A stretch of 64,000 nt of DNA, from assembly GCA_963705725.1 (NCBI GenBank), contig CAVPKM010000007.1, positions 1 to 64,000 of the forward strand. Reading direction: 5' to 3'. Of this stretch, positions 22,252-57,291 are shown piece after piece (the stretch's first letter is position 1; every line of letters begins with the position of its first letter). The DNA comes from an uncultured Gammaproteobacteria bacterium (GTDB taxonomy: Bacteria > Pseudomonadota > Gammaproteobacteria > UBA6002). Position numbers and translations under genes: made by a program. The notes beneath the pieces were generated by a model. It was not told the DNA's origin. It searched no databases and saw only the letters and a program-made list of their open reading frames with translations.

Positions 22252-22390
22252 CCCCTTCGCCAGGAGAAGCATTTCGTCTTGCATTAGCTAATGAAAAACC
22301 CTTACAAATTGCAGTGCTGTGCTATGACCCCTTCGCCAGGAGAAGCATTTCGTCTTGCATTAGCTAATGAAAAACCCTTACAAATTGCAG
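22237..22390 (+). repeat. Exact 76-bp tandem duplication spanning the fadD stop and prpB start
   Basis: AGTGCTGTGCTATGACCCCTTCGCC...CCCTTACAAATTGCAG begins at 22237 and again at 22313. Confidence 0.95.
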
Positions 22391-23187: not shown

Positions 23188-23198
23188 AAGGAAAGAGC

Positions 23199-24329: not shown

Positions 24330-24334
24330 CTTGC

Positions 24335-24392
24335 CCCAGGTATGAACATTTGTGCGTTGAACAGACTCTTACCCCGTGAGCATACGTTGCAG
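24335..24392 (+). repeat. Dispersed intergenic repeat, copy 2
   Basis: CCCAGGTATGAACATTTGTGCGTTGAACAGACTCTTACCCCGTGAGCA. Confidence 0.85.
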
Positions 24393-24424
24393 GTTTTTAG
24401 CACCTTAGTTAAAGGAAAAAATGA

Positions 24425-25654: not shown

Positions 25655-25662
25655 GGCTCTCT

Positions 25663-29815: not shown

Positions 29816-31739
29816 TTATTTTAAATCTAATTTTTTAAAATAATTTAAGCTTTCGGGGTTGGCAAGCGCAGAGAGGTTTTTGACCGGTCTGCCATGAATA
29901 ACGTCTCGCACTGCCAATTCAACAATTTTGCCGCTTAATGTTCTTGGTATATCCGGTACAGCGAAAATTTTGGCAGGGACGTGTCTTGGGGAGCAATGCT
30001 CTCTTAATATTGTATTGATTTTTTCCACTAATGTTTCTGTTAAGGCCAAGTGAGGGGCGAGGATAATAAATAATAAAATTCGATTATCTGATTCCCATTC
30101 TTGACTGACTGCTAGCGCTTCGATAACTTCCGGAAGTTGTTCAACTTGGCGGTAAATTTCTGCGGTTCCAATTCGAACACCGCCAGGATTTAGTGTGGCA
30201 TCAGAGCGCCCATAAATAATCATTGTTTCTCTTGCTGTGATTTCTGCATAATCGCCATGCGCCCAAACTCCTGGAAACTTATTGAAATAGGCTTGTTGAT
30301 ATTTTTGTCCATTTTCATCATTCCAGAAACAAATGGGCATGCTGGGAAAAGGCGCGGTACATACCAGCTCCCCCTTTTGATTCACGACAGGCTGCCCCTT
30401 GTCATTATAAATTTGAACCGCCATGCCCAAACCTAAACATTGCAACTCACCGCGATAGACGGGCAAGATTGGATTGCCGAGTGCAAAGCAAGAAATAATA
30501 TCTGTTCCTCCTGAAATAGAGGATAAACAAACGTCTTTTTTAATCATTTGATAGACATAGTCATAATTTTTGCCGACCAATGGAGAGCCGGTGGATAAAA
30601 TAGTGCGTAAAGCATCCAATTTGTGAGTCATCTTGGGATTGAGTTTTGTTTGCTCCATTGCGCTTAAGTATTTAGCGCTGGTGCCGAAAACGGTCACCTC
30701 TTCATGATCAATAAGATCCCACAAACGAGAAGGCGTAGGTTTAAGTGGGGAGCCATCATATTGCACAACGGTTGCGCCAACAAAAAGACTGCTGATATAC
30801 CAATTCCACATCATCCATCCACAGGTGGTATAGTAGAAAATTTTGTCAGTTTGTTGCAGATTAGTATGAAGAACTAATTCTTTTGCGTGCTGAAGCAAGG
30901 TTCCACCTGCGCCATGAACAATGCACTTCGGTTCACCTGTGGTGCCGGAAGAATACAAAATGTAGATGGGGTGATTAAAAGGTAATGAAACAAATTTTAT
31001 TGCTTCCCGCTTATCAAGCAGCAATGTGCTTAGAGAGTTGTGGGTTTCTTTTTCAAGATTATTATTGATAATCCAATGTTTGACAGAATCTAAACGCGCC
31101 TTTAGCCAATCGAGTTTTTTGATATTAGAGAACGGTTTGCCATTGTAAATAAAGCCATCACAAGCAATGACTATTTTGGGTTGAATTTGATGAAAACGAT
31201 CAAACAAGGCTTCTTGCCCAAATTCTGGCGAACAGGATGACCAAACGGCGCCTAATGCAGTGGTGGCTAACATAGCAATGACAGCTTCTGGCTCGATTGG
31301 GCAAAATTGCTGCCACTCTATCACCTACGCTAAGACCCATTGCCTCAAAATGCTTCGCTAAGCTTGCAACAGCGGTATAAAGTTCTTGATAAGTATACTG
31401 TTTTCGGCAATTTCTTTCGTCATTAAAAATTAAGGCAATTTGATCGCTACGTTGCTTGAGTAAATTTTCAGCAAAATTCAGTTCAGCTGAAAAAAACCAA
31501 GTGGCATCTTGCATCTTTTCTCCAACCCTCAAAATTTGTTTTGCTGGCGTGGAAAATTTAATACCGACAAATTGCGCTAGCAAACCCCAAAACTTTTCTT
31601 TCTCCCTGATTGACCAGTGATAAAGTTCGCTATAATTTTGAATTTTGATCGCATATTGTTTTTCTACTTCTCGCATGAAGCGCATTATTTGGCTGGTAGC
31701 AATGGCTTGAGGACTGGGTTGCCACAGTATTTCAGCCAT
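29816..31739 (-). pseudogene. Acetoacetyl-CoA synthetase, split by a frameshift near 31293 (probably a sequencing error)
   Basis: ILWQPS...LNFAENLL...GDRVAAILPN then PEAVIAMLAT..WSSCSPEFG, YSSGTTGEPKCIVH, TTCGWMMWNW, SISGGTD, GRSDATLNPGGVRIGTAEIY. Confidence 0.88.
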
Positions 31740-32640
31740 GCTGGTTACCTGTCAGCACTTTGGCGACTTTCGATTGAGTATCACGTTTGAGATAGTCAGA
31801 AATAAAAATTCCTATTTGAGATAAGCGCAAAAGATCGATCCCTGTATCCACACCTAATCCTTCAAGCAGGTAAACGACATCTTCCGTTGCAACATTGCCA
31901 GTTGCACCTTTTGCGTAAGGGCAACCCCCAAGACCGGCCACAGAGGCATCAATAATATGAATTCCTTCAAGTAAGGCGGCGTAGATGTTGGCAATGGCTT
32001 GACCATAAGTGTCATGAAAGTGAACGGCAAGAATTTCTAGCGGAACCTGCTGTTTCACGATGTGAATTAACTCTTTCACATAATTGGGCGTCCCAATGCC
32101 AATCGTATCCCCTAAAGAAATTTCATCGCAACCCATTTGATGCAGTGTTTGGCACAACTTTGCGACGGTTTGTGGCATTACCTTGCCTTCATAGGGACAA
32201 CCGAGGACGCAAGATAAATAACCTCTTACTCTAATCTGATTGTTAATTGCTTCTTGCACCACATTGCGATAATTTTTTAAACTTTCCGCAATCGAACAAT
32301 TGATATTTTTTTGAGAAAAACTTTCAGAAGATGATGCAAAAATAGCGATTTCTTTGACACCAGCTTCCATTGCTCTGGCTAAACCTTTGAGATTAGGCAC
32401 TAACGCGGAGTAATGTACGGCATTTTTTTTATGGATTTGCGTAAAGACTTCAAAAGCATCTGCTGTTTGTGGGATTTTTTTTGGTGATACAAAACTCGTT
32501 ACTTCAATATTTTTTAACCCGGTTTCTGATAACTGATTGATTAGTGCTACCTTAACAGACGTAGGTATCTGCTGGTTTTCGTTTTGTAGTCCATCGCGTG
32601 GGCTGACTTCAACCAGCTTAATGGAAGTGGGTAGCATCAT
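31732..32640 (-). CDS. hmgL: Hydroxymethylglutaryl-CoA lyase
   Basis: EVSPRDGLQNE, ISLGDTIG, HFHDTYGQA, GLGGCPYAKGATGNVATED. Confidence 0.95.
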   Translation of the reverse strand: MMLPTSIKLVEVSPRDGLQNENQQIPTSVKVALINQLSETGLKNIEVTSFVSPKKIPQTADAFEVFTQIHKKNAVHYSALVPNLKGLARAMEAGVKEIAIFASSSESFSQKNINCSIAESLKNYRNVVQEAINNQIRVRGYLSCVLGCPYEGKVMPQTVAKLCQTLHQMGCDEISLGDTIGIGTPNYVKELIHIVKQQVPLEILAVHFHDTYGQAIANIYAALLEGIHIIDASVAGLGGCPYAKGATGNVATEDVVYLLEGLGVDTGIDLLRLSQIGIFISDYLKRDTQSKVAKVLTGNQHG

Positions 32641-32655: not shown

Positions 32656-33973
32656 CTAAAGTGTGACGATTCGTTTTTGCCATTTTGCTGCAATGGCCTT
32701 TAGTGCTTCAAAATCAAAGGTAACAAGATTGCCATTGCGTAACAATTGTTTACCTGCTACCCATGAATCCGTGATTTGATGATTCGCTGCCGCATATACG
32801 ATTTGAGAGATAGGATGATAAACAGGTAGGGTATTGACCTGCTCTAAATCAATGGCAATGAGGTCTGCTGCTTTCCCGAGTTCTATTGAGCCAATTTCCC
32901 GGTCAAGTCCCATTGCTTTGGCGCCATTAATTGTCGCCATTTCTAGTGCTTGGATAGCAGGGACAGCGGTCGCGTTATTTGCAATAGTTTTTCCGATTAA
33001 GGCAGCTGTTCTCATTTCACTTAGCATATCCAGATCATTGTTACTTGCTGCCCCATCCGTCCCCAACGCAATGTTGATTTGATTTTGTTTCAGTTCTTCA
33101 ATTGGGCAATAACCGCTTGCGAGTTTTAAATCAGATTCGGGGCAATGGGTAATATGGATGCCCGTTTCTTGCATAATAGCCATGTCTTCTTCATTAATTT
33201 GTGTCATATGAACGGCTTGAAATCGGTTAGAGAGTAGACCAAGTGCGTAAAGACGTCGAAGAGGTCTTAGATTAAATTGTTTAATGCTTTCTTGGACTTC
33301 GTTTGCCGTTTCATGTAAGTGCATGTGGATAGGTAACTGATATTTTTCAGAATAATTTGCAATTTTTTCCAAAATCGCATTCGTTGTGCCGTAAGGGCTA
33401 TGCGGGGCAAGACTCCAGGTTAACAGCGGATGATGAGTAAACTGGTCTCTTGCTATCAAAAATTTATCAAAAGCCTCCGCTTCATGCTGAGACCAGCTAT
33501 TTGGAAAATTAATGATAGTGGAGCCGATGCAAGCGCGAATGCCATGCTGTAAGGCCGCCTTGGCAATAACCTCTGGGTAAAAAAAATGCTCGTTAAAACA
33601 AGTGGTCCCGGTTTTTAACATTTCCGCAATAGCAATTTGAGTGCCATCTTCAATAAATTCCTCACTGAGCCATTTCCGCTCTGCTGGCCAAATATGATTG
33701 TTCAGCCATTCCATCAGCGGTAAAATCATCCGCTAACCCTCTAAATAGTGTCATGGGGCTATGGGTATGTGCATTAATAAAACCCGGCAGCAACGCATGA
33801 GTGGGGAGGTGAATTTCCTGATCAGTTGTGAAGATTTCCTTCGCTTGCCTTTGTGGCAGAATCGCTTGGATTCGACCATCTTGGATAACGATGGCCTGAT
33901 GTTCATAAACACTGGCGCGAGGGATGATGGGAATGAGCCACCGACAATAAATAATGCTATCCGTTTCTTGCAT
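32656..33973 (-). pseudogene. TRZ/ATZ family amidohydrolase (MTA/SAH deaminase-like), frameshifted at about 33722-33725 (probably a sequencing error)
   Basis: LLPGFINAHTHSPMTLFRGLADD then LPLMEWL; APHSPY, HMHLHET, AVHMTQ, GTDGAASNNDLDM; one extra base in a 4-nt homopolymer. Confidence 0.88.
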
Positions 33974-34106
33974 CAAATAATTCCTAAGTTTCTGTAATTT
34001 GTTAGAAGTAATATACCCTTCGCGAAAGGTATATTTTGAGGTCATTCTTTCTCTTTTGGACTAGGTGCTGTCAATAGAATAATCCATGAATGGGTAGAGG
34101 GAGCGA

Positions 34107-34757: not shown

Positions 34758-37327
34758 ATGACAGAATTTGCCGGAGAAGTCATTTCCGTAAATATAGAAG
34801 AAGAGCTAAAGCACTCTTATCTTGATTATGCAATGAGTGTCATTGTGGGTAGGGCATTGCCAGACGTTAGAGATGGCTTAAAGCCCGTTCACAGACGCGT
34901 GCTTTTTGCGATGAGCGAGTTGAATAATGACTGGAATAAACCTTATAAAAAATCAGCTCGTATCGTGGGGGATGTAATTGGTAAATATCATCCGCATGGA
35001 GACTCGGCCGTCTATGATACCATCGTGCGTATGGCTCAACCTTTCTCATTGCGCTATTTGTTGATTGATGGTCAAGGAAATTTCGGATCTGTTGATGGTG
35101 ATGCGCCTGCTGCGATGCGGTATACCGAAATTAGGATGTCTAAATTTGCACATCGACTGCTTGCTGATCTCGATAAAGAAACAGTTGAATTTGTCCCCAA
35201 CTATGACGAAACTGAGCATGTTCCAACAGTCTTGCCCACACGCATTCCAAATTTGCTCGTCAATGGCGCATCAGGCATTGCAGTTGGTATGGCGACAAAT
35301 ATCCCCCTCATAATTTAACTGAAGTCATCAATGCTTGCATGGCGCTAATTGAGCAACCAGATCTGGAAATCAATGAATTAATGCAATATATCCCTGGCCC
35401 AGATTTTCCTACTGCTGCAATTATTAATGGTCGAGCAGGAATTCAAGAGGCTTATAAAACAGGGCGAGGTCGAATTTATTTGCGTGCGCGCACCTCAATT
35501 GAAACAGATGAAAATGCCAACAAGCAGACCATTTTAATTCATGAGCTACCTTATCAAGTTAATAAAGCTCGATTACTGGAAAAAATTGGAGAGCTCGTTA
35601 AAGAGAAAAAAATTGAGGGGATTACCGCAATTCGAGATGAATCCGATAAAGATGGGATGCGTGTTGTTATTGAACTCAGGCGTGCTGAAAATGGCGAAGT
35701 GGTGTTGAATAATCTTTATGCTCACACACAAATGGAGACAGTATTCGGCATCAATATTGTTGCGCTTGATCGGGGTCAGCCAAAGGTACTCAATCTAAAA
35801 GAATTATTGGATGCTTTTTTACAGCATCGACGAGAAGTGGTGACTCGGAGAACTATCTATGAACTTAGAAAGGCAAGAGAAAGAGCGCATATTTTAGAGG
35901 GTTTAGGCATTGCCTTAGTGAATATTGATAAAATGATTGCCCTTATTAAAGCCGCTCCCAATCCTGCTCATGCAAAAGAAGCGTTACTTGAAGAAGCTTG
36001 GCAAATTAAAGAAATCGCCACATTACTCGAACGAACAGAAAGTCTAATCACTCGACCGATTGATTTAGACAGTAAATATGGGCTCAAAGATCAAGGCTAT
36101 TATCTTTCACCTGCTCAAGCTCAGGCTATTTTGGAATTACGGTTACATCGCCTCACCGGATTAGAACAAGAAAAAATTTTTACAGAATACCAAAATCTCA
36201 TTGAATTAATTCATGACCTTCTGGATATTTTAGAAAACCCTGCTCGATTGATGCAGGTAATTCGCGAAGAATTAGACGAAATTAGAGCCGAATTTGGTGA
36301 TGGGAGACGAACAGAGATCATAGATAGCAAGGAAGAGCTTTCTTTGGAAGATCTGATTACTGAAGAAGAGGTAGTGGTGACAATATCTCATCATGGTTAT
36401 GCCAAGACCCAATCATTGGATGCTTATCAAGCACAGCGTCGAGGTGGTCGTGGTAAGTCTGCGACTCATGTCAAAGAAGAAGATTATGTTACCACACTTC
36501 TCATCGCTAATACCCATGATACGATTTTATGCTTTTCTAATTCAGGAAAGGTCTATTGGCTAAAAGTTTATCAAATTCCACAAGCTAGCCGCATATCATT
36601 AGGTCGTCCCTTAGTGAATTTGCTTCCTTTAGGCTCTGAAGAGCGAATTAGCGCAATTTTATCTGTCAAGGAATTTTCTGAAGACCAATACATTATGATG
36701 GTGACGAGTCAAGGGGTAATAAAGAAGGTATCTCTCGAGCAATTTTCTCGTCCAAGATCAAATGGCATTATTGCGTTAGATATGCTGCCAGGTGATGATT
36801 TAGTTGGCGTTCAGTTAACCGATGGACATCAAGATGTCATGCTGTTTTCAAATAACGGAAAGGTTATTCGATTTAAAGAAGATGAAGTTAGAGCTATGGG
36901 TAGGGTAGCGCGTGGTGTAAGAGGAATGCGCTTGTCAGAAGACCAACGAGTGATTGCTTTAATTGTGGCGAAACGAGAAGGAGCCATTCTAACTGCAACG
37001 GAAAATGGTTATGGTAAACGGACGGATATTAGCGAATACAGATGCACCGGACGAGGAGGTCAAGGTGTGATCTCCATTCAAGTAAATGAGCGAAATGGTG
37101 GGGTAGTAGGAGCGGTTCAAGTGAGTGATGAAGATGAAATTTTGCTTATTAGTGATCAAGGAACAATGGTTCGAACAAGGGTAAGTGAAGTTTCTTTATT
37201 AAGCCGTAATACACAAGGTGTACGTTTAATTAATTTAGCAAATGATGAAAAACTTGTTGGCATTCAACCTGTTATTGAAAAATTGGAACAAGATGTAGCG
37301 GATGATGCGGATGATGCGGATGATTAG
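34758..37327 (+). CDS. gyrA: DNA gyrase subunit A (apparent 1-base deletion in the C run at 35303-35307)
   Basis: [29 protein letters not shown] then (P)HNLTEV in the shifted frame; GyrA box QRRGGRG; essential gene, so the shift is probably an error. Confidence 0.95.
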
Positions 37328-45810: not shown

Positions 45811-46476
45811 GTGGTTTCATTTTTTATCACAATAAAAAGAGAGATAACTATTGCATTAAGACGAAAAATTGACTACCTCAATCCGCTAGGTTTTTTTCTT
45901 TTAATTATTTTGCTTTTCCCCTTGGCGATTACTTCAGATATAAAAATGCTGGCACTAATTGGTCCTGGGGTAATTTGGATAGGCTTGTTATTTGCCAATT
46001 TATTATCGGTTGAAAATCTTTTTAGCGTAGATTTTGAAGATGGTACTTTAGAGCAGATGTGGCTTAATTCTAATTCATTTATATTAGTGATTTTAGGGAA
46101 ATTAATAGTCTATTGGATATTGACTGCCTTCCCGCTAATTGGGATAAGTGTCTTGGCCGGAATCCTCTATGAGCTAAATATTAAAATTATCTACTTATTA
46201 TTATCAAGTCTGCTGTTAGGATCACCGGTACTTGTCCTATTATCAGCGCTAGGGTCTGCGTTAACCTTGGGGCTTAGAAATAGAGGGTTAGTGCTTATTT
46301 TATTAGTTATCCCACTTTTTATTCCGATTTTAATATTTGGGGCAGGCGCAGTAAATCATGCTGCGCAAGCTATGGCGTTTGAAAGTCAACTATATTTTCT
46401 AGGCGCATTATTAATTTTGGCTCTAACCTTTCTTCCGCTGGCCATTACGTCGGCATTAAAAATCAGTTTAGAGTGA
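45811..46476 (+). CDS. ccmB: Heme exporter protein B
   Basis: GPGVIW, DFEDGTLEQ, PLFIPILIFG. Confidence 0.93.
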   Translation: MVSFFITIKREITIALRRKIDYLNPLGFFLLIILLFPLAITSDIKMLALIGPGVIWIGLLFANLLSVENLFSVDFEDGTLEQMWLNSNSFILVILGKLIVYWILTAFPLIGISVLAGILYELNIKIIYLLLSSLLLGSPVLVLLSALGSALTLGLRNRGLVLILLVIPLFIPILIFGAGAVNHAAQAMAFESQLYFLGALLILALTFLPLAITSALKISLE

Positions 46477-46491
46477 AAGGTCACTACTCGT

Positions 46492-46543
46492 CCCAGGAAG
46501 GAAACGGTGCGTTGAACAGACTCTTACCCTGTGAGCAGTCACA
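46492..46543 (+). repeat. Dispersed intergenic repeat, copy 3
   Basis: CCCAGGAAGGAAACGGTGCGTTGAACAGACTCTTACCCTGTGAGCAGTCACA. Confidence 0.85.
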
Positions 46544-46735
46544 ATGAAAGAATGAAATTCGGAAAGGTTTGTAAGCTAGACTAGCAAACTGATGTAAGTA
46601 ACTTCACTGGTATCCGCTGTAATTAATTGTAAATTAAGAAAAATTTATAACTCGCGCCTTTTTAATCAATGCATTTTTCCAAGCTATTTTACACTCCTTA
46701 ACTATAATTACGCCATTAAATTTAGGGGAAGCAAT

Positions 46736-48010
46736 ATGGCGACATACAGCGTATATGATAATATTTTGATTAAATTAGAAAATGTGTTTATGAAAGTAGA
46801 GATGGATGTGGATAAGGAACAGTCAGAGCTATTATCAGAACACTTGAGGTTAAATTTTCAACTATCTGATTTAAAAAGCAAAATTGATATCTTAAATTCA
46901 TTGAAGCGCAGTTATGATCTTCACTCTGAAGATAGTGGTGAAATTGAAAAACTGCGTAAAAATATATTTAAAGCTTTATGTGATAAACAGTTGCAACTGC
47001 GCTTTATTCAAGAAAAAGAATTGCTTCTAACCTATTATTCACGGTCACAGTTGTTACAAGATTTGCCGACTGTTATTCAAATAAACCGAGAATTTCGATT
47101 AAGAAAAAGTTTGCTAGAAATTGAGTTATTAGCAAAATTTTTGGCAGATGATAAACGTTTTGCTGAATTTTATCATGAACTGGAAAGGGCAAATGAAATA
47201 TTTGATTTAGCGGTTGAATCCGGGGCAAATGATAAATTAGAAAATGCCCTCTCGCTATTCCAACGTTTTTTTGAAAAAGTCTGTCACTTTTTTAATTTAG
47301 AGTCCTCCTTAGTGGAGGAATTTAAACAGTTTAAAACTCAGATCTCTTTGCAAGCAAATTCAGTTTTAGGATTAACTGCTAAAGATTTGGACAGTCTGGA
47401 AGCTTTTTCTTATGTTTATCAAGATATCGCAAATAAACGAATCAGCTTGGAACTTGAAACAGATAAATTATTTTATCAATACAGCATGTTTCAAAATGGT
47501 AAAAGCATTATTCAAGCGGAGATAAAAAATACGCATGGAGAGCTTGAAAGTATTTTATTCAAAGAATATGCGATTAAGCAAAAAATGAAAGAGCTTAAGC
47601 AGTATAAAATAGAACTAAATCATCAAAAAGAAGATTTCATGAAAGATCCTACTGTCGATGGCTATGCCGAGGCCATGCGCCAACTGGAGCAGGTTGAAAC
47701 GCGTTTCAGAAGACTGATGATGCACAAAAACTTTGAAAAACCTTCGCTAGTATCAAGATTTTTTGCAGTGAATAGAACGAAAAAAATTAAAAAAAATGAA
47801 AGAACTTATTATAACAAAAATCTCTTCCAAATACTGCATAACAGCCGCGTGACCACTCAAGATAAAATGATTATCTTGAGACTTTCAAAACCCTCTAAAG
47901 TGATTAATACCTCAACGGGTAAGCTTTTTTATCAACGCACGAACAAGTTAAGATCGCTAAAAAGCTTAGAACAAACTATTTCTAGCCTTCAATCAAAAAA
48001 TTTACATTAG
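46736..48010 (+). CDS. Hypothetical coiled-coil protein, effector-like
   Basis: 424-aa L/K/E-rich helical ORF, AGGGG RBS, own terminator; no family recognised. Confidence 0.7.
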   Translation: MATYSVYDNILIKLENVFMKVEMDVDKEQSELLSEHLRLNFQLSDLKSKIDILNSLKRSYDLHSEDSGEIEKLRKNIFKALCDKQLQLRFIQEKELLLTYYSRSQLLQDLPTVIQINREFRLRKSLLEIELLAKFLADDKRFAEFYHELERANEIFDLAVESGANDKLENALSLFQRFFEKVCHFFNLESSLVEEFKQFKTQISLQANSVLGLTAKDLDSLEAFSYVYQDIANKRISLELETDKLFYQYSMFQNGKSIIQAEIKNTHGELESILFKEYAIKQKMKELKQYKIELNHQKEDFMKDPTVDGYAEAMRQLEQVETRFRRLMMHKNFEKPSLVSRFFAVNRTKKIKKNERTYYNKNLFQILHNSRVTTQDKMIILRLSKPSKVINTSTGKLFYQRTNKLRSLKSLEQTISSLQSKNLH

Positions 48011-48018
48011 CCAATAAG

Positions 48019-48040
48019 GCGGTAAATGAAAATTTACCGC
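48019..48040. terminator. Hairpin between convergent genes
   Basis: GCGGTAAAT-GAAA-ATTTACCGC. Confidence 0.75.
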
Positions 48041-48045
48041 TGAGC

Positions 48046-48198
48046 CTAAATCCTTCCTGATAAGAGAAGTATCAATAATATAATAAAAATAACTCCTAAA
48101 ATACCAGTCGGATAATAACCCCAACCTCGACTATGAGGCCAAGCAGGAAAGGCGCCTATTGCTAATATAATTAGAATAATCAATAATATAGTAATCAT
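48046..48198 (-). CDS. DUF3309 family small membrane protein (50 aa, missed by the ORF track)
   Basis: MITILLIILIILAIGAFPAWPHSRGWGYYPTGILGVIFIILLILLLSGRI; signature GAxPxWPHSRxWGYYP; GGAG RBS. Confidence 0.9.
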   Translation of the reverse strand: MITILLIILIILAIGAFPAWPHSRGWGYYPTGILGVIFIILLILLLSGRI

Positions 48199-48259
48199 AT
48201 TTAATGCTCCTATTTTAAAAAAATTATAGTACTTTTTATCTAGTATTATTAGTTTTTTT
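48135..48259 (+). repeat. Direct repeat A (5' part and upstream region of the DUF3309 gene)
   Basis: Aligns along its length with 55823..55945; its first 20 bp match 54106..54125 at 18/20. Confidence 0.9.
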
Positions 48260-48260
48260 A

Positions 48261-49358
48261 TTAAGAAGCCGCAAATCTAGCAACCCTATCAAGCTGCGCA
48301 ACAACCTTGTTTCCCATCTCACAGGTGGATAACAACATTCCCTCAGCAGTCATCATATCTTTTGTTCTAAATCCTTCATCCAAAATAGTCGTCACTGCCG
48401 TTTGAATCATTTGCGCTTCTTGATCCAGTTTAAACGAGTATTTGAACATCATGGCGACACTTAATATGGCAGCCAGTGGATTGGCGATATTTAGTCCTGC
48501 AATATCAGGAGCACTGCCGTGGATCGGTTCGTACAAGGAGTAATGCTCGCCGAAAGAAGCCGATGGCAGCATGCCGAGTGATCCGGTCAACATTGATGCT
48601 TCATCTGATAAAATATCACCGAACAAATTTGCCGTAAGCATGACATCAAATTGTTTTGGATTACGGATCAACTGCATGGCCGCATTATCCACATACATAT
48701 TTGAAAGACTGATATCTGGATAGTCATGATCTCGTATCGCTTGCACCGTATTTCGCCACAACATCGAGGTTTCCAGTACGTTCGCTTTATCAACCGAGCA
48801 CACCTGATTATTCCGAAGTCTCGCCAATTCAAAGGCAACACGGGCTATTCGCTCAATTTCAGATTTCGAATAGCGCATGGTGTTAATACCAACCTCTTGG
48901 CCGTCAACAAGGCTAATACCGCGCGGTTCACCAAAATACACATCTCCGGTCAACTCGCGAACAATCATTAAATCCAGACCATTAATACACGCTGATTTTA
49001 ATGGCGATGATTCTGCCAGTGCTTGAAAAACAATGACAGGTCTTAAATTGGCAAAAAGACCCAATCCCTGACGGATACCCAGCAATCCCTTCTCGGGTTT
49101 ATGTGTATTTTCAACATGATCCCATTTCGGCCCGCCAACGGCACCCAACAAAATGCTATCCGATTTTTTGGCAGTTGCCATGGTCTCTTTATCTAACGGT
49201 TCGCCGCTATGATCAATCGATGCTCCACCGATTAAGCCATGAATTAAATTAAAGTGGTGCGCTGAATTTTGGTTAAACCACTGCAAAACCTTAACACCTT
49301 CTGCAGTCACTTCCGGGCCAATGCCATCACCGGGTAAAACCAGAATGGTTTTATTCAT
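48261..49358 (-). CDS. leuB: 3-isopropylmalate dehydrogenase
   Basis: LPGDGIGPEV, GAVGGPKW, LFANLRP, SVDKANVL, NLFGDILSDEA, YEPIHGSAPDIAG. Confidence 0.97.
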   Translation of the reverse strand: MNKTILVLPGDGIGPEVTAEGVKVLQWFNQNSAHHFNLIHGLIGGASIDHSGEPLDKETMATAKKSDSILLGAVGGPKWDHVENTHKPEKGLLGIRQGLGLFANLRPVIVFQALAESSPLKSACINGLDLMIVRELTGDVYFGEPRGISLVDGQEVGINTMRYSKSEIERIARVAFELARLRNNQVCSVDKANVLETSMLWRNTVQAIRDHDYPDISLSNMYVDNAAMQLIRNPKQFDVMLTANLFGDILSDEASMLTGSLGMLPSASFGEHYSLYEPIHGSAPDIAGLNIANPLAAILSVAMMFKYSFKLDQEAQMIQTAVTTILDEGFRTKDMMTAEGMLLSTCEMGNKVVAQLDRVARFAAS

Positions 49359-49965
49359 GAATAACTCCTTCAAACAGCCAGGGTTGCGCTATTTTTTGTT
49401 GGTTTTCAAACACCGATATCACCTCTTCATAGGCCAATGTTTCGCCAATTTCATCCAATCCCTTGAGCAAGGTTTCCCGGCGCCAGGCATCAATACAAAA
49501 AGGTATTTCCAGTGTATCAACACGGATGATTTGAGATTCCAAATCGACTGTCACCAGGTTATTGTTTCGCTCAACAAGCCGTTGGATGTGCGCTTTTGGC
49601 AGGACAACAGGCAGCAAGCCGTTTTTAAAACAATTACTATAAAATATATCAGCAAAGCTTGGGGCTATGATCACCTGAATTCCGAAATCAAGTAAAGACC
49701 ACACAGCATGCTCGCGACTTGAGCCACAGCCAAAATTTTCCTCAGCCAACAAAATCCTCGTCTGTTGGAAGTTTGGCTGATTCAAAATGAAATCGCGTTT
49801 TGGCTGATTCGCTTCATCGTAACGCATTTCAGCAAATAACCAAGTTCCCAATCCCGTGCGTTTTATCGTTTTAAGGTATTGCTTGGGTATAATCATATCG
49901 GTATCAATATTTGCAACGGGCAAATAAGCCATAACACTTGTGATTGTTTTAAATGCTTGCATCAT
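49351..49965 (-). CDS. leuD: 3-isopropylmalate dehydratase small subunit
   Basis: [38 protein letters not shown]. Confidence 0.97.
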
Positions 49966-51368
49966 CGACCTCCTTTTATCGTTCTGACATCGGTTAACTT
50001 TCCTGTAATTGCCGCGGCGGCGGCCATTGCTGGACTCATCAAATGCGTACGACCCCCGCGTCCTTGACGACCTTCAAAATTACGATTGGACGTTGATGCG
50101 CAACGCTCCCCTGGGTTTAAGCGGTCTGCATTCATGGCTAAACACATGGAACAACCAGGCTCTCGCCAATCAAAACCTGCGGCAATAAAAATTTTATCCA
50201 GCCCTTCTGCTTCGGCTTGCTCTTTCACAAGTCCTGAGCCAGGTACAACCATGGCATCAACCCTTTCGGCAACGGTGTGGCCTTGAATAACCAGGGCTGC
50301 CGCACGCAAATCCTCGATACGCGCATTGGTGCAGGAGCCGATAAATACCTTGTTTATTTTAATAGCTTGCAAAGGCATGCCAGGCGTCAAGCCCATGTAA
50401 TCTAGGGCACGCACCATGGAATCTCGTCTGATGGGATCAGATTCTTTCGATGGGTAGGGCACATGGCCATCAATTGGCAATGCTGTTTCAGGACTGGTTC
50501 CCCACGTTACATAAGGGGTAAGCATATCGGCTTGCAGCGAGATGTCTTTATCATATTTCGCATCAATATCTGCATGGAGAGTTCGCCAGAAATCAGTAGC
50601 TTTATCCCACAATACGCCTTGAGGCGAATAAGGTTTACCACGCAAGTAATCACAAGTTACCTGATCCGGGGCTATCAAACCGGCTCGTGCTCCGGCTTCT
50701 ATGGCCATATTACAAATGGTCATTCTGGCTTCCATTGACAGTGCCTTGATTGCAGAACCCGTGAATTCAATGACATGCCCGGTGCCACCTGCCGTCCCGA
50801 TCTTTGCGATGATCGCCAGAATGATATCTTTTGCCGTCACACCAAAAGGTATATTTCCCTCAACACAGACGCGCATGTTTTTTGATTTTTTTAATACCAG
50901 GGTTTGTGTTGCAAAAACATGCTCTACTTCGCTTGTTCCAATACCAAATGCCAAAGCACCAAAGGCACCGTGCGTTGAAGTATGGCTATCACCGCACACA
51001 ATAGTGGTACCTGGCAATGTAAAACCCTGCTCTGGCCCAATGATATGAACAATCCCTTGTCGTTTATCCAAAAGCTCAATGTAGTGGATCCCGTGTTGGT
51101 TACAATTGTCTTGCAACAGGCTAACTTGTACCCGAGACTCATCATCGATTATGCCCATGCGGCGATTGTGAGTAGGTACATTGTGGTCGCTAACAGCTAA
51201 AATGGTCTCCGGGCGCCGAATTTTTCGACCAGCAACGGCCAAGCCTTCAAACGCTTGTGGGCTGGTGACTTCATGAATCAAGTGTCTGTCAATATAAATA
51301 ATCGACGTGCAATCAGGTTTATCGCACACTTGATGTTGCTCCCAAATCTTGTCATATAACGTTTTCAT
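49962..51368 (-). CDS. leuC: 3-isopropylmalate dehydratase large subunit
   Basis: [58 protein letters not shown]. Confidence 0.97.
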
Positions 51369-53418
51369 CGTCACTCCCATTTTCCCTAACCAAATGTTCA
51401 TAGGCTTGAATAATGATTTTGGTTATCTTTCCTATCTCAAAACATCGATCGCCAATCTGTGAAACTGGTGTAACTTCAACCGCACTTCCCGTAATGAATA
51501 CCTCATTCGCATCCAGCACTTCATCAGGATATATATGACGTTCAATAACAGGGATATGATAGCATCGCGCAATCGCGATAACTGTCTGTCGCGTAATGCC
51601 ATTCAAAAAACAATCAGCAATGGGCGTGTGAATTACGCCGTTCTTAACCATAAAGAAATTAGCCCCCGTGCATTCAGCAACGTAGCCGCGATAATCCAGC
51701 ATCAAGGCGTCATGAAAACCGGCCTGTTCGGCTTTGTTCTTGCTCAAAGAACCAATCATATACAGCCCAGCTGCCTTTGCCGTGACCGGCGCCGTTGAAG
51801 GAGAGGGACGGGTCCAGTCGGACCACATTAGTTTCAATCCATGTTTCATGCTATTTTCATCGGAAAAATAGGATGTCCATTGCCAAGCTGCAATCGCCAC
51901 ATGGACGTTACACGAATGAGATGCAACACTCATGGTTTCCTCACCGCACCAGGCAATCGGTCGAATGTAAGCATCCTGCAAGTTATTTTTACGAATTATT
52001 TCTTCCGTAATGGCATTTAATTCAGCAACGGAATAAGGAATGTTAAATCCCAACTCATTGGCTGAATGATGCAAGCGTTCATTATGCTGATTCAACTTGA
52101 AGACCTTACCATTGTATGCGCGTGCACCTTCAAAAACCGCGCTAGCATAATGCAACCCATGAGTCAAAACAGAAACCTGTGCATCATTCCACGGGATGAA
52201 TTCACCGTCCATCCAGATCACGCCTTTTTGCTGATGAGTGATACTTTTAACCGGTGAGGTTTGTCCATCAATCAAAGCCATAATGTCAGCATCTGAAATA
52301 TCTTTCTGGGCATCGCCCAATGCTTTGAATTGTTTAAACAGCTTACTAAAAGCCTCGTCTTCAACATTGATTTTCAAGGTCGTTAATTTATTCCGAAATG
52401 CAGCGCGTCCTGAATGTTTGCCCATGCTCAATGTAGATTGCGTGATGCCAACGGATTCGGGCGTCATGATTTCATACGTTTCACGACACTTCAGCATGCC
52501 ATCCTGGTGAATACCAGATTCATGCGCAAATGCATTTGCACCGACAATAGCCTTGTTTTTTTGCACCACAAACCCACTCGCCGCTGAAACCAGTTTGGAA
52601 ATTTCAGCGATGTAGGTTGGATCAATGTTTATCGTGAAAGGAAACTGATCCTGTCTGGTTTTAATGGCCATGACAATTTCTTCCAGCGCAGCATTCCCTG
52701 CGCGTTCTCCAATGCCATTAATAGTGCATTCAATTTGCCGGGCACCCGCACTGATTGCAGCCAGTGAATTGGCAACAGCCATCCCCAGATCATTATGACA
52801 ATGGACAGACAGAATGGCTTTATCGATATTTGGCACCTTATTTTTGATTACTTTGATCAAATCACTGTATTCAATTGGAGTAGAATATCCAACCGTATCT
52901 GGAATATTGATGGTTCTTGCCCCAGCCTGAATGGCAATTTCAACAGCGCGCGTTAGAAAATCGATGTTTGACCGCGTTGCATCCATTGCAGACCACTCAA
53001 CGTCATCACAATAATGTCGTGCTGCACGAACTGATGTCTGAATTGCGTCCAATGCCTCATCATGGGTCATTCTGAACTGATGTTTCAAATGCATATCGGA
53101 TGTGGAAATGAACGTATGAATTCTCGGCCGCGCAGCTGATTTAACAGCGTGACCAGCAGCTTCAATATCCGCAATTTTTGCCCTTGCCAAGCTACTCACC
53201 GTTGCATTTTTTACCATCTTGCAAATCTGTTCAATGCATTGAAAATCACCCGTTGATGCGGCAGCAAACCCAGCTTCAATCACATCGACACCCATGCAAT
53301 CCAATGCACTAGCAATTTCAATTTTCTGACTCATCGTCATCGTGGCGCCAGGAGCTTGTTCTCCATCCCTCAATGTTGTATCCAGTATCATAATTTTATT
53401 TTGTGTATTCTGTTTCAT
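51352..53418 (-). CDS. leuA: Fusion of 2-isopropylmalate synthase (no C-terminal regulatory domain) and branched-chain aminotransferase (LeuA-IlvE)
   Basis: [41 protein letters not shown], then in frame [28 protein letters not shown] (PLP Lys), LNGITR, EVFITGS; GAGG before ATG 53418. Confidence 0.9.
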
Positions 53419-53597
53419 GCTATTTACCTCTTTTCGAAGATAAAAAACCATTTTAACAAATTATGATTGAAAGATGGTTGCGATCATTGCTTGAAAATGG
53501 GGGATAAAGGAAATATAATTTCAATTATAATTGTTTATTTGAAATTAAATTCTAAATAACTGATTTTTCAAAGAAAGGGCAGGGGTGGCATTTTTTT

Positions 53598-54080
53598 ATG
53601 GATCGCATTGACAAAAAAATTTTAGAGCTATTGCAAGCAAATGGTCGCATCAGTAATCAGGAATTAGCAGATCAGGTGGCACTATCACCCTCACCCTGTT
53701 TACGTCGTGTTAAACAACTGGAAGAAGACGGTTACATCCGTGGCTATGTTGCATTACTCGACCCCGCTAAAATAGGGTTGCAATTGACAATTATAGTCTC
53801 GGTGACCCTGGTTAACCATGATCCAAAAGTAATGAAGCACTTTGAGGCTACAGTCGCCGCCTTCCCAGAAGTAATACAATGCTATCTCATTACAGGACAA
53901 TCTGCCGATTACCTTATAAAGGTGGTAGTCGCTAATCTGAACGAATATCAATCTTTTTTATTAAAAAAGCTAACAATTATTGATGGTGTCAATCAGGTGC
54001 ACTCCAGTTTTGTTTTGCAACGCATCGTTGATAGAACATCACTCCCACTGGATCATTTGAATGAGCAGCCTGGTAACTAA
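53598..54080 (+). CDS. Lrp/AsnC family transcriptional regulator
   Basis: DRIDKKILELLQANGRISNQELADQVALSPSPCLRRVKQLEEDGYI; divergent from the leu operon. Confidence 0.95.
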   Translation: MDRIDKKILELLQANGRISNQELADQVALSPSPCLRRVKQLEEDGYIRGYVALLDPAKIGLQLTIIVSVTLVNHDPKVMKHFEATVAAFPEVIQCYLITGQSADYLIKVVVANLNEYQSFLLKKLTIIDGVNQVHSSFVLQRIVDRTSLPLDHLNEQPGN

Positions 54081-54084
54081 CGAA

Positions 54085-54125
54085 TGGTTTTTTAGGACCA
54101 TAGCGGAGGCTAAGCGGGAAAGGCG
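54085..54125 (+). repeat. Direct repeat B (left boundary of hipBA)
   Basis: 39/41 identical to 55802..55842, including the exact 29-mer ACCATAGCGGAGGCTAAGCGGGAAAGGCG. Confidence 0.92.
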
Positions 54126-54148
54126 AAAAAACTTTAATGAGAAGGTGC

Positions 54149-55477
54149 TTATGCTTCAAGCTTTTTCTTTACTTCGAGCATGCCTTCAAAAATCGGTTGG
54201 TAAATTTGTGTAGGAAAGGTACTTGGTAGTTGTGATTCTACCTTACTAATTACTTGATCAACCCTTGCGAGCAGGCTATCGATGAGAACTGAGGCAGTAG
54301 CCATTGAATAATTTGCAGCTTTTGCTGTCATTAAGAAATGACGGCGTTGTAGAGTATGCCAAGAATAATGGTTATTATTTCCTTTTAGTGCCATTGCCAT
54401 TTTTAATTTTTGTTTCGCTAGTTGCTTCTTTGCAACTAATGGGTAGGCAGATATGATGTCGTATAAGGGGGTGAGGCGGTATCTCCCGCCAGCTTCTAAA
54501 AAAATGCTGAAATTTTTTGCGTGACCATCAATTGCCCCGAGTAACCAAAATAATATTTGAGATTTAAAAAATATTTCACGATCATCATTGGAGTTATCTG
54601 ACCCTAGCAAGGTATCCATTATTTGAGATATTCCCGGACCTCCTTCAGATTGATATTTTATGCTAGGAGAGATGCCCTGCGTTTGGCACATGTCCTCTTG
54701 AGGTAATCGCATTATCCAGCTTTTATCGCTTGATAATCCGCGGTCAAATCGTTCGACGATTAATACTTTTACCTCTTCAAATTTACGTATACTAGTTTTT
54801 GCAACGGGCAAATCAAATGCTTCTGCAATTTTAGAGCATAACCACTCATTTTCACAGCTATCGCCTAGGTCCATTTGCTGATGCTGAAGATATCCAATTG
54901 GCAATTTAAAGATATGTGTTGTTGGTGTGGTATTAAGGGGCCGACACCATTCTTTTTTATAGAAAAGAAATGCTGTTTTTTCTTGTGCTCCCGCAATTGA
55001 AATACGAAATGCGTCATTTTTACCCTTCATACCAAGAGGGTAGAGCTGGTGATTTCTAAGTAATGCGGCTATTTGCGCTTCTGTCAATACTTCATATTGT
55101 ATTTCTCTTTTAAAGCTTTGAACTTCTTCCGTAACCATTTGAATAGCGCCTACACAATCTTTCCCTATGCTTGCTAATAAATCAAAAGGATGTGTCGTTG
55201 CCGTTTGAAATTCAGCCTGTATTCTTGCTCGTACTTGTGGATTTTCAGGAAGTAAATTATCAAAAAAATTATAAACAATATCCCCTGAAAAAACCTTGTT
55301 ACTGAGTGGGAGAGATAAGGATATAGAGCGCGCCGCTGATGTTTCCAGCCATTCTTGAGTATATTGATATATCAGTGCGCCTTTTGAAGTTTTTGTTAGC
55401 CTGCCGATTAATTTCCCATTCATTAATATATAAAGTATTCTGGTCTTATTTTTATTTGCTACCACTCTTCTTTCCAT
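54149..55477 (-). CDS. hipA: HipA family Ser/Thr kinase toxin
   Basis: SLSLPL..FFDNLLPE, ISIAGAQEKTA, THIFKLP, ENEW, DGHAKNFS, LTPLYD; start may be GTG 55465. Confidence 0.95.
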   Translation of the reverse strand: MERRVVANKNKTRILYILMNGKLIGRLTKTSKGALIYQYTQEWLETSAARSISLSLPLSNKVFSGDIVYNFFDNLLPENPQVRARIQAEFQTATTHPFDLLASIGKDCVGAIQMVTEEVQSFKREIQYEVLTEAQIAALLRNHQLYPLGMKGKNDAFRISIAGAQEKTAFLFYKKEWCRPLNTTPTTHIFKLPIGYLQHQQMDLGDSCENEWLCSKIAEAFDLPVAKTSIRKFEEVKVLIVERFDRGLSSDKSWIMRLPQEDMCQTQGISPSIKYQSEGGPGISQIMDTLLGSDNSNDDREIFFKSQILFWLLGAIDGHAKNFSIFLEAGGRYRLTPLYDIISAYPLVAKKQLAKQKLKMAMALKGNNNHYSWHTLQRRHFLMTAKAANYSMATASVLIDSLLARVDQVISKVESQLPSTFPTQIYQPIFEGMLEVKKKLEA

Positions 55478-55716
55478 TCTGTTTTATCATGCCCCTCTTT
55501 TGCTTCTTTTGGTAAGATTTGAATGTCAAGATCTAAAGCGGAAAGTATTCTAAAAAAAGTAGCCAGCTCTGTCCTTTGTGGTTTTACTTCAAACTGAGAA
55601 ACAGTTTGCTGCTTTAGGCCAACTCTTTGGCCTAATTCTGTCTGGCTTAACTTAAGTTTTTTACGTCTGTCCGTTAAATAAACGGCCAAGTCATTAGGTG
55701 AATGAACAAACATCAT
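55459..55716 (-). CDS. hipB: HipB-like HTH antitoxin
   Basis: SPNDLAVYLTDRRKKLKLSQTELGQRVGLKQQTVSQFE; ends in Trp like E. coli HipB; overlaps hipA. Confidence 0.92.
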   Translation of the reverse strand: MMFVHSPNDLAVYLTDRRKKLKLSQTELGQRVGLKQQTVSQFEVKPQRTELATFFRILSALDLDIQILPKEAKEGHDKTEWKEEW

Positions 55717-55730
55717 TTCTCTCCATAAAT

Positions 55731-55803
55731 TACCCTTTATAGCATGTATTTTTAATTTTACCCCTTATAAAGGGTAATTTCAACTTACCCTTTATAAGGG
55801 GTG
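55731..55803. promoter_or_regulatory. Three candidate HipB operators TACCC-N8-GGGTA
   Basis: 55731 TACCCtttatagcATGTA; 55759 TACCCcttataaaGGGTA; 55786 TACCCtttataagGGGTG; same geometry as E. coli TATCC-N8-GGATA. Confidence 0.8.
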
Positions 55804-55945
55804 GTTTTTTGGTACCATAGCGGAGGCTAAGCGGGAAAGGCGCTATTGCTAATATAATTAGAATAATCAATAATATAGCAATCATATTAAACGCGCATTT
55901 TTTATAAAATAATAGTATTTTTCATCTCGTATTATTAGTTTTTTT
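55802..55945 (+). repeat. Direct repeat C (right boundary of the island)
   Basis: First 41 bp match repeat B; 55823..55945 match repeat A. Confidence 0.9.
55823..55885 (-). pseudogene. Truncated, frameshifted second copy of the DUF3309 gene
   Basis: MIAILLIILIILAI, then a 1-base deletion (GGCGC vs GGCGCC); RBS degenerated. Confidence 0.8.
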
Positions 55946-56011
55946 GTTTATTTCTGTTAGCAGAACCCTAGCTGACGAGTTGTGAGGTTTTTTAATGAAG
56001 AGTGAGCACAG

Positions 56012-56740
56012 ATGTTGACCTTGCTGTATAAATTCGCTGCACCCAAGTACTTTTTTACTGCTTCGGCTAAGTTATTGCCTCTATTAATAGTCATGTGCTG
56101 TATAACACTTGGATATGGTTTAGTCGGAGGATTATATCTCGCTCCGGCGGACTATCAGCAAGGTGAAGTATTTCGAATTATCTATGTTCATGTGCCAAGT
56201 GCCGTACTATCATTAGCGATTTATCTGATAATGGCAATTTTTGCAGGAATTGGCCTGATTTGGCGCATTAAAATTGCAAAGATCATTTTTACAGAAAGTG
56301 CACCAATTGGGATATCTTTTACTTTTTTGGCGCTGTTAACTGGTGCGTTATGGGGGCAGCCAACATGGGGGACGTGGTGGTTGTGGGATGCGCGGCTCAC
56401 ATCAGAATTAATTCTGCTTTTACTGTATTTTGCCATTCTTACGCTTCAATCAGCAATTGAGGATAAAGATAAAGCGATAAAAGCAAGTAGTTTGTTAGCG
56501 TTGGTGGGAGTGGTAGATCTGCCGATTATCCATTATTCAGTATATTGGTGGAACACCCTTCATCAGAAAGCCACCATTTTGAAACTGCATGCACCTTCTA
56601 TGGATTTGTCAATGCTATATCCATTATTATCAATGATATTGGCTTTTTTCTTATTTTATATTATTGTGTTGCTACTTCGTTCACGCAATGCGCTCCTTGT
56701 GCATGAAAAACAAGCGCAATGGATTAAACAAACGTTATAA
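56012..56740 (+). CDS. ccmC: Heme exporter protein C
   Basis: RIIYVHVP, WGQPTWGTWWLWDARLTS, IIHYSVYWWNTLHQ. Confidence 0.96.
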   Translation: MLTLLYKFAAPKYFFTASAKLLPLLIVMCCITLGYGLVGGLYLAPADYQQGEVFRIIYVHVPSAVLSLAIYLIMAIFAGIGLIWRIKIAKIIFTESAPIGISFTFLALLTGALWGQPTWGTWWLWDARLTSELILLLLYFAILTLQSAIEDKDKAIKASSLLALVGVVDLPIIHYSVYWWNTLHQKATILKLHAPSMDLSMLYPLLSMILAFFLFYIIVLLLRSRNALLVHEKQAQWIKQTL

Positions 56741-56743
56741 ATA

Positions 56744-56896
56744 ATGAAAACAATAGTTTCTTTTCTATCAATGAATGGTTATGGGTTTTTTGTCTGGACA
56801 TCTTATTCCCTCATGGCTGTTATTTTAATTTTTAATTTAACTGTGCCGTTATATAAATTTAAACAATTAAAAAACGAACTACGAGGCAAGTGTTGA
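56744..56896 (+). CDS. ccmD: Heme exporter protein D (50 aa, missed by the ORF track)
   Basis: MKTIVSFLSMNGYGFFVWTSYSLMAVILIFNLTVPLYKFKQLKNELRGKC; MxGYxxFVWxSY motif; between ccmC and ccmE. Confidence 0.88.
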   Translation: MKTIVSFLSMNGYGFFVWTSYSLMAVILIFNLTVPLYKFKQLKNELRGKC

Positions 56897-57291
56897 ATAT
56901 AAAGCGAAGGAGGCGCTTAATATTAATCGTCTTGATGGTTCTAGGAGTAGGTTGTTCTACCAGCTTAGTCTTAGTCGCCTTGAATAAAAATATTAATTTA
57001 TATTATACTCCAAGCCAAATAAATCAAAAAAACCTTCCTAAAACGCGTTTGCGCCTAGGTGGATTAGTGAAAAATGGCAGTATCCATAGAGCAGGTGACA
57101 CGCTCAAAATTAATTTTATTGTTACTGATAATAAGCATGAAATTTCTGTCGTCTATGTGGGTATCCTTCCTGCTTTATTTCGAGAAGGACAGGGTGTGGT
57201 GGTCGAGGGTGAGTTCCTCAATCAGCACTTTATTGCCAAGCAAGTGTTGGCAAAACATGATGAAAACTATCGGCCGCCAGGCTTAAAATAG
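56890..57291 (+). CDS. ccmE: Cytochrome c maturation heme chaperone
   Basis: RLGGLV, LPALFREGQGVVVEG, LAKHDENY. Confidence 0.95.
   Translation: MLNIKRRRRLILIVLMVLGVGCSTSLVLVALNKNINLYYTPSQINQKNLPKTRLRLGGLVKNGSIHRAGDTLKINFIVTDNKHEISVVYVGILPALFREGQGVVVEGEFLNQHFIAKQVLAKHDENYRPPGLK

Follow-up and report, generated by a model that had tools for sequence, protein, structure and literature searches.

Bacterial 2-isopropylmalate synthase (IPMS, LeuA; PDB 3rmj, models PRK00915 and TIGR00973) carries, behind its catalytic barrel and accessory domain, a C-terminal domain of about 122 amino acids for leucine binding and dimerisation, and the branched-chain amino acid aminotransferase IlvE (PDB 3u0g, 4whx, 6nst and 1i1k; PRK07544, TIGR01122) is a free protein of the class-IV fold. 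The ping-pong transamination of IlvE and the chemistry of LeuA, LeuCD and LeuB are textbook enzymology. Here we describe a locus that departs from both enzymes. In a 64,000-nucleotide stretch of DNA from an uncultured gammaproteobacterium (GenBank assembly GCA_963705725.1, contig CAVPKM010000007.1, positions 1 to 64,000; hereafter the window), one minus-strand gene, leuA::ilvE, encodes both. Its LeuA half aligns end to end with the barrel and accessory domain of the best solved relative, the Neisseria meningitidis IPMS 3rmj (E 9.9e-126), and keeps the LeuA motifs, but the leucine-binding/dimerisation domain is missing and an aminotransferase stands in its place. That second half is a full-length class-IV fold which, unlike IlvE, is not free but tethered by 10 residues to an enzyme using one of its products.

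Related synthases that do without the regulatory domain are on record. Homocitrate synthase (NifV/LYS20) has no domains besides the catalytic and accessory ones and needs no others for activity, according to PMC9860122; it serves another substrate and pathway, and the fusion scores 321 bits against TIGR02660, whose cut-off is 463. The same study reports that bacterial IPMS truncations reaching into the accessory domain, which the fusion keeps in full, lose activity, and a plant study (10.1101/2024.06.14.598950) describes an IPMS that without its regulatory domain is still active and has lost leucine feedback. The Brassicaceae methionine chain elongation pathway (BCAT4, MAM synthase, IPMI, IPMDH, BCAT3) follows a comparable sequence of steps: deamination, addition of one carbon by a synthase lacking the allosteric domain, isomerisation, oxidation/decarboxylation and re-amination. 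We regard this as a resemblance in working logic and not as membership. Plant MAM, isobutylmalate and apple citramalate synthases are each a protein of their own and have altered substrates in specialised metabolism, whereas the window encodes bacterial parts that are fused, share one operon and probably act on valine and leucine substrates.

A fused LeuA-IlvE protein without the leucine-binding domain

The gene lies in a single minus-strand open reading frame (ORF), 51352..53451, of 699 amino acids. The probable start is the ATG at 53418, which has GAGG 8 nucleotides upstream and corresponds to the MKQNT at which homologues begin. Residue positions of domains are counted below on the 699-amino-acid ORF, and those of conserved columns (e.g., K548) on the 688-amino-acid form.

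51352..53418, minus strand: leuA::ilvE fused coding sequence, 688 amino acids from ATG 53418, frame open back to 53451
52588..53394, minus strand: HMGL-like TIM-barrel catalytic domain of 2-isopropylmalate synthase, residues 20-288 (PF00682, 309 bits)
52303..52548, minus strand: accessory domain HCS_D2, whole, residues 302-383 (PF22617, 99 bits, profile 1-82 complete)
52237..52266, minus strand: 10-residue linker, residues 396-405 (alignment A1; gap-free in relatives' contigs)
51379..52236, minus strand: complete branched-chain amino acid aminotransferase (IlvE) domain, residues 406-691 (Aminotran_4, PF01063, at 439-666, 172.6 bits)

Similarity to LeuA stops at DADIMALID (residues 387-395, nucleotides 52267-52293), and after the linker the IlvE N-terminus reads HQQKGVIW. 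The linker thus occupies the position at which full-length LeuA and rare 800-amino-acid fusions (see below) hold the regulatory domain of about 122 amino acids, LeuA_dimer. NCBIfam LeuA models of about 516 positions are covered only to position 386-390 or so, while the IlvE models are covered end to end by residues 406-691, and LeuA_dimer (PF08502) has no match in the fusion protein by Pfam or anywhere in the genome by profile search. An earlier note on this DNA, made from its sequence, had claimed an in-frame LeuA-IlvE protein at 51352..53418 without the regulatory domain, and both claims hold. It had also described a linker of about 15 residues: the join is indeed short, in frame and into a complete IlvE, but it measures 10.

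The LeuA half passes the NF002086 equivalog cut-off despite truncation (598.1 bits, cut-off 532) and falls under those of TIGR00973 (568.5 versus 598.7) and NF002087 (622.1 versus 729), a shortfall to be expected with a quarter of the profile missing; the IlvE half exceeds three equivalog cut-offs (NF005726, 439.1/396; NF005146, 331.7/279; TIGR01122, 301.4/245.55). LRDGEQ (residues 27-32), HCHND (HxHxD, 217-221) and GIGERAGN (GxGERxG, 246-253), which we take to be the metal and substrate motifs of 2-isopropylmalate synthase, are invariant in 40 of 40 fusion proteins. So are A547, K548, A549, G551, L552 and Y553 of the stretch TAKAAGLY (557-564), whose lysine (AKAxGxY) is presumably the catalytic one that binds pyridoxal phosphate, as in Escherichia coli IlvE. 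Identity to a full-length LeuA of 514 amino acids (P0055) is 70% over the LeuA half, and this, together with the operon shared with leuCDB, suggests that it condenses 2-ketoisovalerate with acetyl-CoA. From its family membership, the IlvE half would transaminate valine/ketoisovalerate and leucine/ketoisocaproate.

Conservation and distribution of the fusion

A search of 5.8 billion protein clusters returned 40 clusters of 674-719 amino acids that carry the same three Pfam domains, and hence the architecture that the earlier note had singled out (HMGL-like, no LeuA_dimer, Aminotran_4), at 64-93% identity; some of them bear the names Legionella fallonii, L. feeleii and "Legionellaceae bacterium." Across these 40 proteins, 252 alignment columns are invariant, including HxH, GIGERAGN and the AKAxGLY lysine. 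Both halves stand in one open frame of 682-722 amino acids in 10 of 203 scored Legionellaceae species genomes, among them isolates of 3.6-4.4 Mb (L. massiliensis, L. drozanskii and L. brunensis), and one more gammaproteobacterial metagenome-assembled genome (MAG) outside the Legionellaceae, G211, also carries an intact fusion. When 1.84 billion 50%-identity representatives were searched, P0010 alone among the 150 matches listed aligned with both halves, so the fusion constitutes one narrow family. L. brunensis (G008) has, besides its fusion (C3:62902-64941), a second, stand-alone short LeuA 8 kb upstream (C3:54107-55264; 73% identical, about 390-402 amino acids).

Several genes elsewhere in the window are each split into two adjacent ORFs (gyrA, 34758-37327; acetoacetate-CoA ligase, 29816-31739; a TRZ/ATZ hydrolase, 32656-34045), which points to indel errors in the assembly. 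The fusion itself is real: an assembly artefact is ruled out by the 40 clusters, the 11 other genomes and gap-free independent contigs. A 2,613-nucleotide contig of an unrelated freshwater run (X2) aligns to 51384-53447 with 133 substitutions and 0 gaps, and contigs of two further runs (X4 and X5) span 52092-52338 with 0 gaps; these represent relatives' DNA and not the source reads of the assembly, as no run matched more than 14% of sampled words. Public fusion proteins bear automatic names only, such as "2-isopropylmalate synthase" or "branched-chain-amino-acid aminotransferase," which conceal the fused architecture. Neither the fusion nor a leu operon in Legionella was found described in the literature searched (full text, with subscription journals largely outside its scope). 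The component enzymes are ordinary and known; it is their combination that we did not find described.

The fusion heads a leucine operon in a transferred cassette

As the earlier note had stated, leuC, leuD and leuB follow the fusion gene on the same strand, each identified here by its ORF and Pfam match. What that note did not see is that these genes, with a divergent regulator of their own, form a horizontally acquired cassette.

49962..51401, minus strand: leuC, 3-isopropylmalate dehydratase large subunit; true start probably near 51368, so that leuC overlaps the 3' end of the fusion gene
49351..49965, minus strand: leuD (ORF and Pfam)
48261..49373, minus strand: leuB, 3-isopropylmalate dehydrogenase (ORF and Pfam)
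53598..54080, plus strand: divergent Lrp/AsnC-family regulator (lrp) within the transferred cassette (Pfam); 88-92% identical to regulators beside the fusion in three relatives' loci (L011-L013)
48287..54084: transferred cassette, leuB to lrp, 5.8 kb; DNA match of 84-88% to Legionellaceae MAG loci (G082, G005)
48134..48154, plus strand: 21-nucleotide direct repeat core, copy 1, 3 mismatches; at the left boundary of the leu cassette and within the 5' portion of a DUF3309 gene
54105..54125, plus strand: 21-nucleotide core, copy 2, between the leu/lrp cassette and hipBA
55822..55842, plus strand: 21-nucleotide core, copy 3, after hipBA; behind it, as far as 55948, lies a second, decayed version of the DUF3309 gene's 5' end with its upstream region

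The cassette differs from its surroundings in composition and in affinity. G+C content is 44.0% over 48261-54080 and 37.4-37.9% in the flanks. The fusion protein is 88-91% identical to those of the two Legionellaceae genomes G082 and G005, whereas CcmF, the product of a gene 4 kb away from the operon, shares 64% identity with its counterparts in two genomes of the window's own genus (G001, G002) and 47-50% with those of three Legionellaceae genomes; for RpsA the figures are 87-88% and 60-63%. No close fusion homologue was found among the 5 genomes that make up the window genome's family/order in the search set. In relatives, the leuA::ilvE-leuC-leuD-leuB order is retained in 8 of 11 loci, the exceptions being one in which leuD is cut by the contig end (L011) and two without leu genes after the fusion (L012, L017), and lrp adjoins the fusion in 7 of 11. 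None of the 11 has ccm or hip genes near the operon.

In the window the cassette lies between ccmB and ccmC, with both flanks collinear with the sister genomes G001 and G002. The spacer between a lineage-specific gene of 424 amino acids (unk424) and ccmC is a variable spot (window 48011-56011; loci L101 in G002 and L102 in G001): G002, collinear from rpsA to ccmG, has 158 nucleotides there, G001 holds a different gene for a 500-amino-acid leucine-rich-repeat protein, and the window's genome (G000) has 8 kb. The three copies of the 21-nucleotide core are the only ones in the whole genome and bracket the leu/lrp block and the hipBA pair in tandem. Duplicates of about 128 nucleotides, covering the 5' end of the DUF3309 gene and the sequence upstream of it, flank the whole on both sides and are 86-90% identical (48134-48262, 54085-54126, 55802-55948). 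We considered the core as the end of the cassette and rejected this, since it is absent from all donor-side loci examined; that absence marks it as host sequence. Apart from these direct repeats, the ORFs of 46.7-56.0 kb include no integrase or transposase.

By these comparisons the leu/lrp block appears to be a foreign cassette from the Legionellaceae gene pool, now resident in a small-genome bacterium of a different order, and we consider it highly probable that the insertion is real. The remaining doubt arises because the same contig has an aberrant end: the first 9 kb or so of the window has a G+C content of 66-71%, while the remainder of the genome is at about 39%, most ORFs in this end lack an NCBIfam match, and a similar block occurs in contig C9. 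Either the contig is chimeric at this end, or the DNA there is foreign.

Pathway genes in the genome and in other carriers

The window's genome (1.58 Mb, 20 contigs, 92.3% complete) yielded no match to ilvC (TIGR00465) or to the ILVD_EDD family, although the same searches matched 14 of 14 control genomes. The absence of ilvBCD that the earlier note had recorded for the window therefore extends genome-wide for ilvC and ilvD, but not fully for the first step, as contig 4 holds a homologue of the acetolactate synthase large subunit (NF006187, 659.6 bits versus a cut-off of 509). The fusion supplies the only class-IV aminotransferase (Aminotran_4) domain in the genome. Among Legionellaceae genomes, 2 of 204 have an ilvC that scores above cut-off and 1 of 203 an ilvD that does; neither was found in the 10 Legionellaceae genomes with an intact fusion, nor was ilvC found in G211. 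This distribution shows that the operon would function in genomes that are predicted to be unable to make ketoisovalerate from pyruvate.

The genome encodes panB, another consumer of ketoisovalerate. On contig 18, a 2-oxoacid dehydrogenase operon is headed by a gene homologous to leucine dehydrogenase (6acf is its best solved match, E 8.2e-94):

contig C18:4225-7832 (L096): bkd-like operon with the leucine dehydrogenase homologue, then E1alpha, E1beta and a further ORF

This dehydrogenase could provide a second route from valine to ketoisovalerate besides the IlvE half. Its place at the head of a bkd-like operon means that branched acyl-CoA, as fatty-acid primer, could be supplied independently of IlvE.

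A putative valine-to-leucine salvage route and its alternatives

We assign a probability of about 0.6 to the reading that this locus is a self-contained, horizontally spread valine-to-leucine salvage module built on a bifunctional LeuA-IlvE without the regulatory domain. The IlvE half would deaminate imported valine to 2-ketoisovalerate, the LeuA half would condense this with acetyl-CoA, LeuCD and LeuB would yield 2-ketoisocaproate, and the same IlvE half would aminate that product to leucine; the net reaction would be valine + acetyl-CoA + NAD+ -> leucine + CoA + CO2 + NADH. Since the transamination is ping-pong, valine could pass its amino group on to ketoisocaproate, so that no net glutamate would be needed. 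Loss of the leucine site would remove the allosteric brake and leave control to transcription, probably exerted by the Lrp-type regulator that travels with the operon. The earlier note had put forward a valine-to-leucine converter. This is partly supported, in that each of its genomic predictions put to the test came out as expected: the fusion is conserved, the domain is lost, the aminotransferase is the sole one of its class, ilvC and ilvD are missing, and the operon travels as a unit into genomes that lack ilvC and ilvD. PMC3920079 reports that Legionella pneumophila is auxotrophic for valine, leucine and isoleucine and requires phtJ for valine acquisition, which fits a valine-scavenging lifestyle.

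Several points weigh against salvage from valine. Truncation costs some bacterial IPMS enzymes their activity (PMC9860122), and the activity of the natural short form is assumed from its conservation. With the genome 92% complete, ilvC or ilvD may have been missed in G000 alone, and since Legionellaceae as a rule lack both, carriers and non-carriers of the fusion alike, their absence is a background state and not a specific association. Both the acetolactate-synthase-like gene and the leucine dehydrogenase homologue may offer ways around the proposed route. One Legionellaceae genome, G009, has ilvC, ilvD and a separate ilvE along with a fusion locus whose LeuA part contains stops, which may reflect gene decay or long-read error. 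An AlphaFold2 monomer model built from 40 sequences (mean predicted local distance difference test score, 74.8; predicted template modelling score, 0.50; low confidence at the accessory region 285-337 and the linker 386-397) places the two halves in no confident mutual arrangement, so channelling is unsupported. Finally, a search of public runs listed no RNA dataset matching the window DNA.

The salvage reading must be set against four other explanations. Under ordinary leucine biosynthesis, the operon would form the final stretch of a standard pathway, with ketoisovalerate made from pyruvate by the acetolactate-synthase-like enzyme together with an ilvC and ilvD that are unassembled or non-orthologous; that the neighbouring genes became fused would be a neutral accident. 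The incompleteness of G000, its large-subunit homologue and the gene content of G009 leave some room for this, but it seems unlikely to us: ilvC and ilvD are missing from 10 of 10 Legionellaceae with an intact fusion, isolates of 3.6-4.4 Mb included, and ilvC from G211; control searches recovered both families in every reference genome; the acetolactate-synthase-like gene stands alone among neighbours without annotation; and the fusion has stayed in frame across 64-93% identity. Legionellae are rich in branched fatty acids, and the operon might instead supply branched keto acids, with valine-derived ketoisocaproate passing through the 2-oxoacid dehydrogenase to an isovaleryl-CoA primer for iso-odd fatty acids, or being burnt via 3-hydroxy-3-methylglutaryl-CoA (HMG-CoA) to acetoacetate and acetyl-CoA. 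The leucine dehydrogenase/E1alpha/E1beta operon, as well as HMG-CoA lyase and acetoacetate-CoA ligase genes in the window (29816-32640), would suit such a supply, which we nevertheless judge improbable, given that exporting a keto acid requires no transaminase fused to the synthase, that the bkd-type operon already owns a deaminating enzyme, and that making leucine from valine merely to degrade it spends acetyl-CoA to no evident gain.

A neofunctionalised chain elongation is decidedly improbable. Here, as in plant MAM, isobutylmalate and apple citramalate synthases, loss of the regulatory domain would have accompanied a new 2-oxo acid substrate, and acids derived from methionine, leucine, isoleucine or pyruvate would be extended to a non-protein amino acid. 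Plant enzymes without the regulatory domain and with new substrates are on record (10.1101/2021.09.28.462264 and PMC7826400), and the second-best solved relative of the LeuA half is a Brassica MAM synthase (6e1j, E 2.3e-103). Yet this half has 70% identity to P0055, passes an IPMS equivalog cut-off and shares a 99%-supported clade with full-length LeuAs, and the operon has no accompanying tailoring or export genes. The last explanation is an artefact, in which an indel merged leuA and ilvE, or the cassette is a chimeric join of a Legionellaceae fragment. The split genes and the 9-kb end of high G+C content speak for it, but we give it very little credence: the fusion recurs in 40 clusters and in other genomes, and without gaps in independent contigs, host-derived direct repeats that have themselves diverged (86-90%) stand on each side of the cassette, both flanks continue collinearly into the sister genomes, and G002 shows the empty site.

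Salvage from valine thus stays our preferred account, and it admits a more far-reaching form that we offer tentatively. In this form the aminotransferase took the structural place of the allosteric domain and closed an amino-group loop, giving a glutamate-independent, feedback-free valine-to-leucine converter whose supply is sensed by Lrp; the 5.8-kb unit would move between orders of intracellular bacteria, curing leucine auxotrophy. Its fusion would descend from a full-length LeuA-IlvE protein that lost the regulatory domain in one or more clean excisions. Auxotrophy for valine, leucine and isoleucine is textbook knowledge for intracellular bacteria of the Legionella type. If a mobile valine-to-leucine cassette exists among them, leucine dependence would not be uniform in the group, and one 5.8-kb transfer could lift it. 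The locus also amounts to a natural protein-engineering experiment, in which an allosteric domain has been cleanly cut out and an entry-and-exit transaminase stands in its place while rare intermediates keep both. It would offer a compact, probably feedback-free module, and could serve to test whether uniting a pathway's first and last steps in one protein leads to channelling or to co-expression only.

Order of fusion and domain loss

The rare long relatives P0041 and P0044 (800 and 803 amino acids; metagenomic) have LeuA and IlvE arranged in the order of the short fusions and joined at a homologous IlvE junction but, unlike the short fusions, keep LeuA_dimer (HMGL-like + HCS_D2 + LeuA_dimer + Aminotran_4). 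Their regulatory domain of about 122 residues sits, in alignment A1, exactly between DIIAL and the IlvE N-terminus, where the short fusions have a clean gap, and the linker of one short fusion, P0043 (PSIIQSHKKADYIW), nearly matches that of P0044 (PSIITSSKKAEYIW). No long fusion was found in the 203 Legionellaceae genomes.

The LeuA-half tree (121 rows, quick search, midpoint root) contains a clade, supported at 99% in the Shimodaira-Hasegawa-like approximate likelihood ratio test, that unites all 40 short fusions, 15 stand-alone short LeuAs, 5 odd-length proteins, both long fusions and three full-length LeuAs, with the long fusions near its base. The IlvE-half tree, whose outgroup branches are very long and in one case misplaced, groups P0044 with the short fusions P0042 and P0043 (96%) and leaves P0041 in a basal polytomy. 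Both half-trees, then, put the long fusions at or close to the base of the fusion clade, but they disagree on a single loss of the regulatory domain. Our reading is that LeuA and IlvE probably fused first and that the regulatory domain was excised later, once or several times. We also considered a simple origin by merging of adjacent genes in alphaproteobacterial relatives, which is unsupported: in 69 loci from outside the Legionellaceae, the two halves occur together within the 8-kb flanks in L033 alone, and that locus is already a fusion.

Another genome of the window's genus, G004, has an unfused row of a short leuA-like gene (421 amino acids, no LeuA_dimer), leuC, leuD, leuB and ilvE (G004:C8:42096-50325; L006, L010), and ilvC was not found in its genome. 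Unlike the cassette, this row consists of five separate genes, and its products are 36-40% identical to the fusion halves, which suggests that this solution arose independently on two occasions. Short LeuAs without the regulatory domain also occur fused directly to LeuC (HMGL-like + HCS_D2 + Aconitase) in P0057 (860 amino acids) and P0208 (894 amino acids), of which P0057 falls inside the LeuA::IlvE clade.

Other features of the locus

An Rfam scan of 46000-57000 gave no match, and no known leader or T-box was found there; a promoter scan returned 12 sites (14.6 expected) and a terminator scan 6 (6.2 expected), and thus no signal. In two relatives, about 1.27 kb separates the fusion gene from leuC (L013, 4224-5499; L016, 6797-8074), a stretch that the window lacks. 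A 700-amino-acid protein encoded at window 16508-18610 has a weak partial match to the model of the Dot/Icm effector AnkY/LegA9 (53 bits versus a cut-off of 600), at most a hint of a possible intracellular lifestyle. The methylcitrate-cycle genes prpB, prpC and prpD lie at window 22291-27099, with ispG between prpC and prpD, near the HMG-CoA lyase and acetoacetate-CoA ligase genes.

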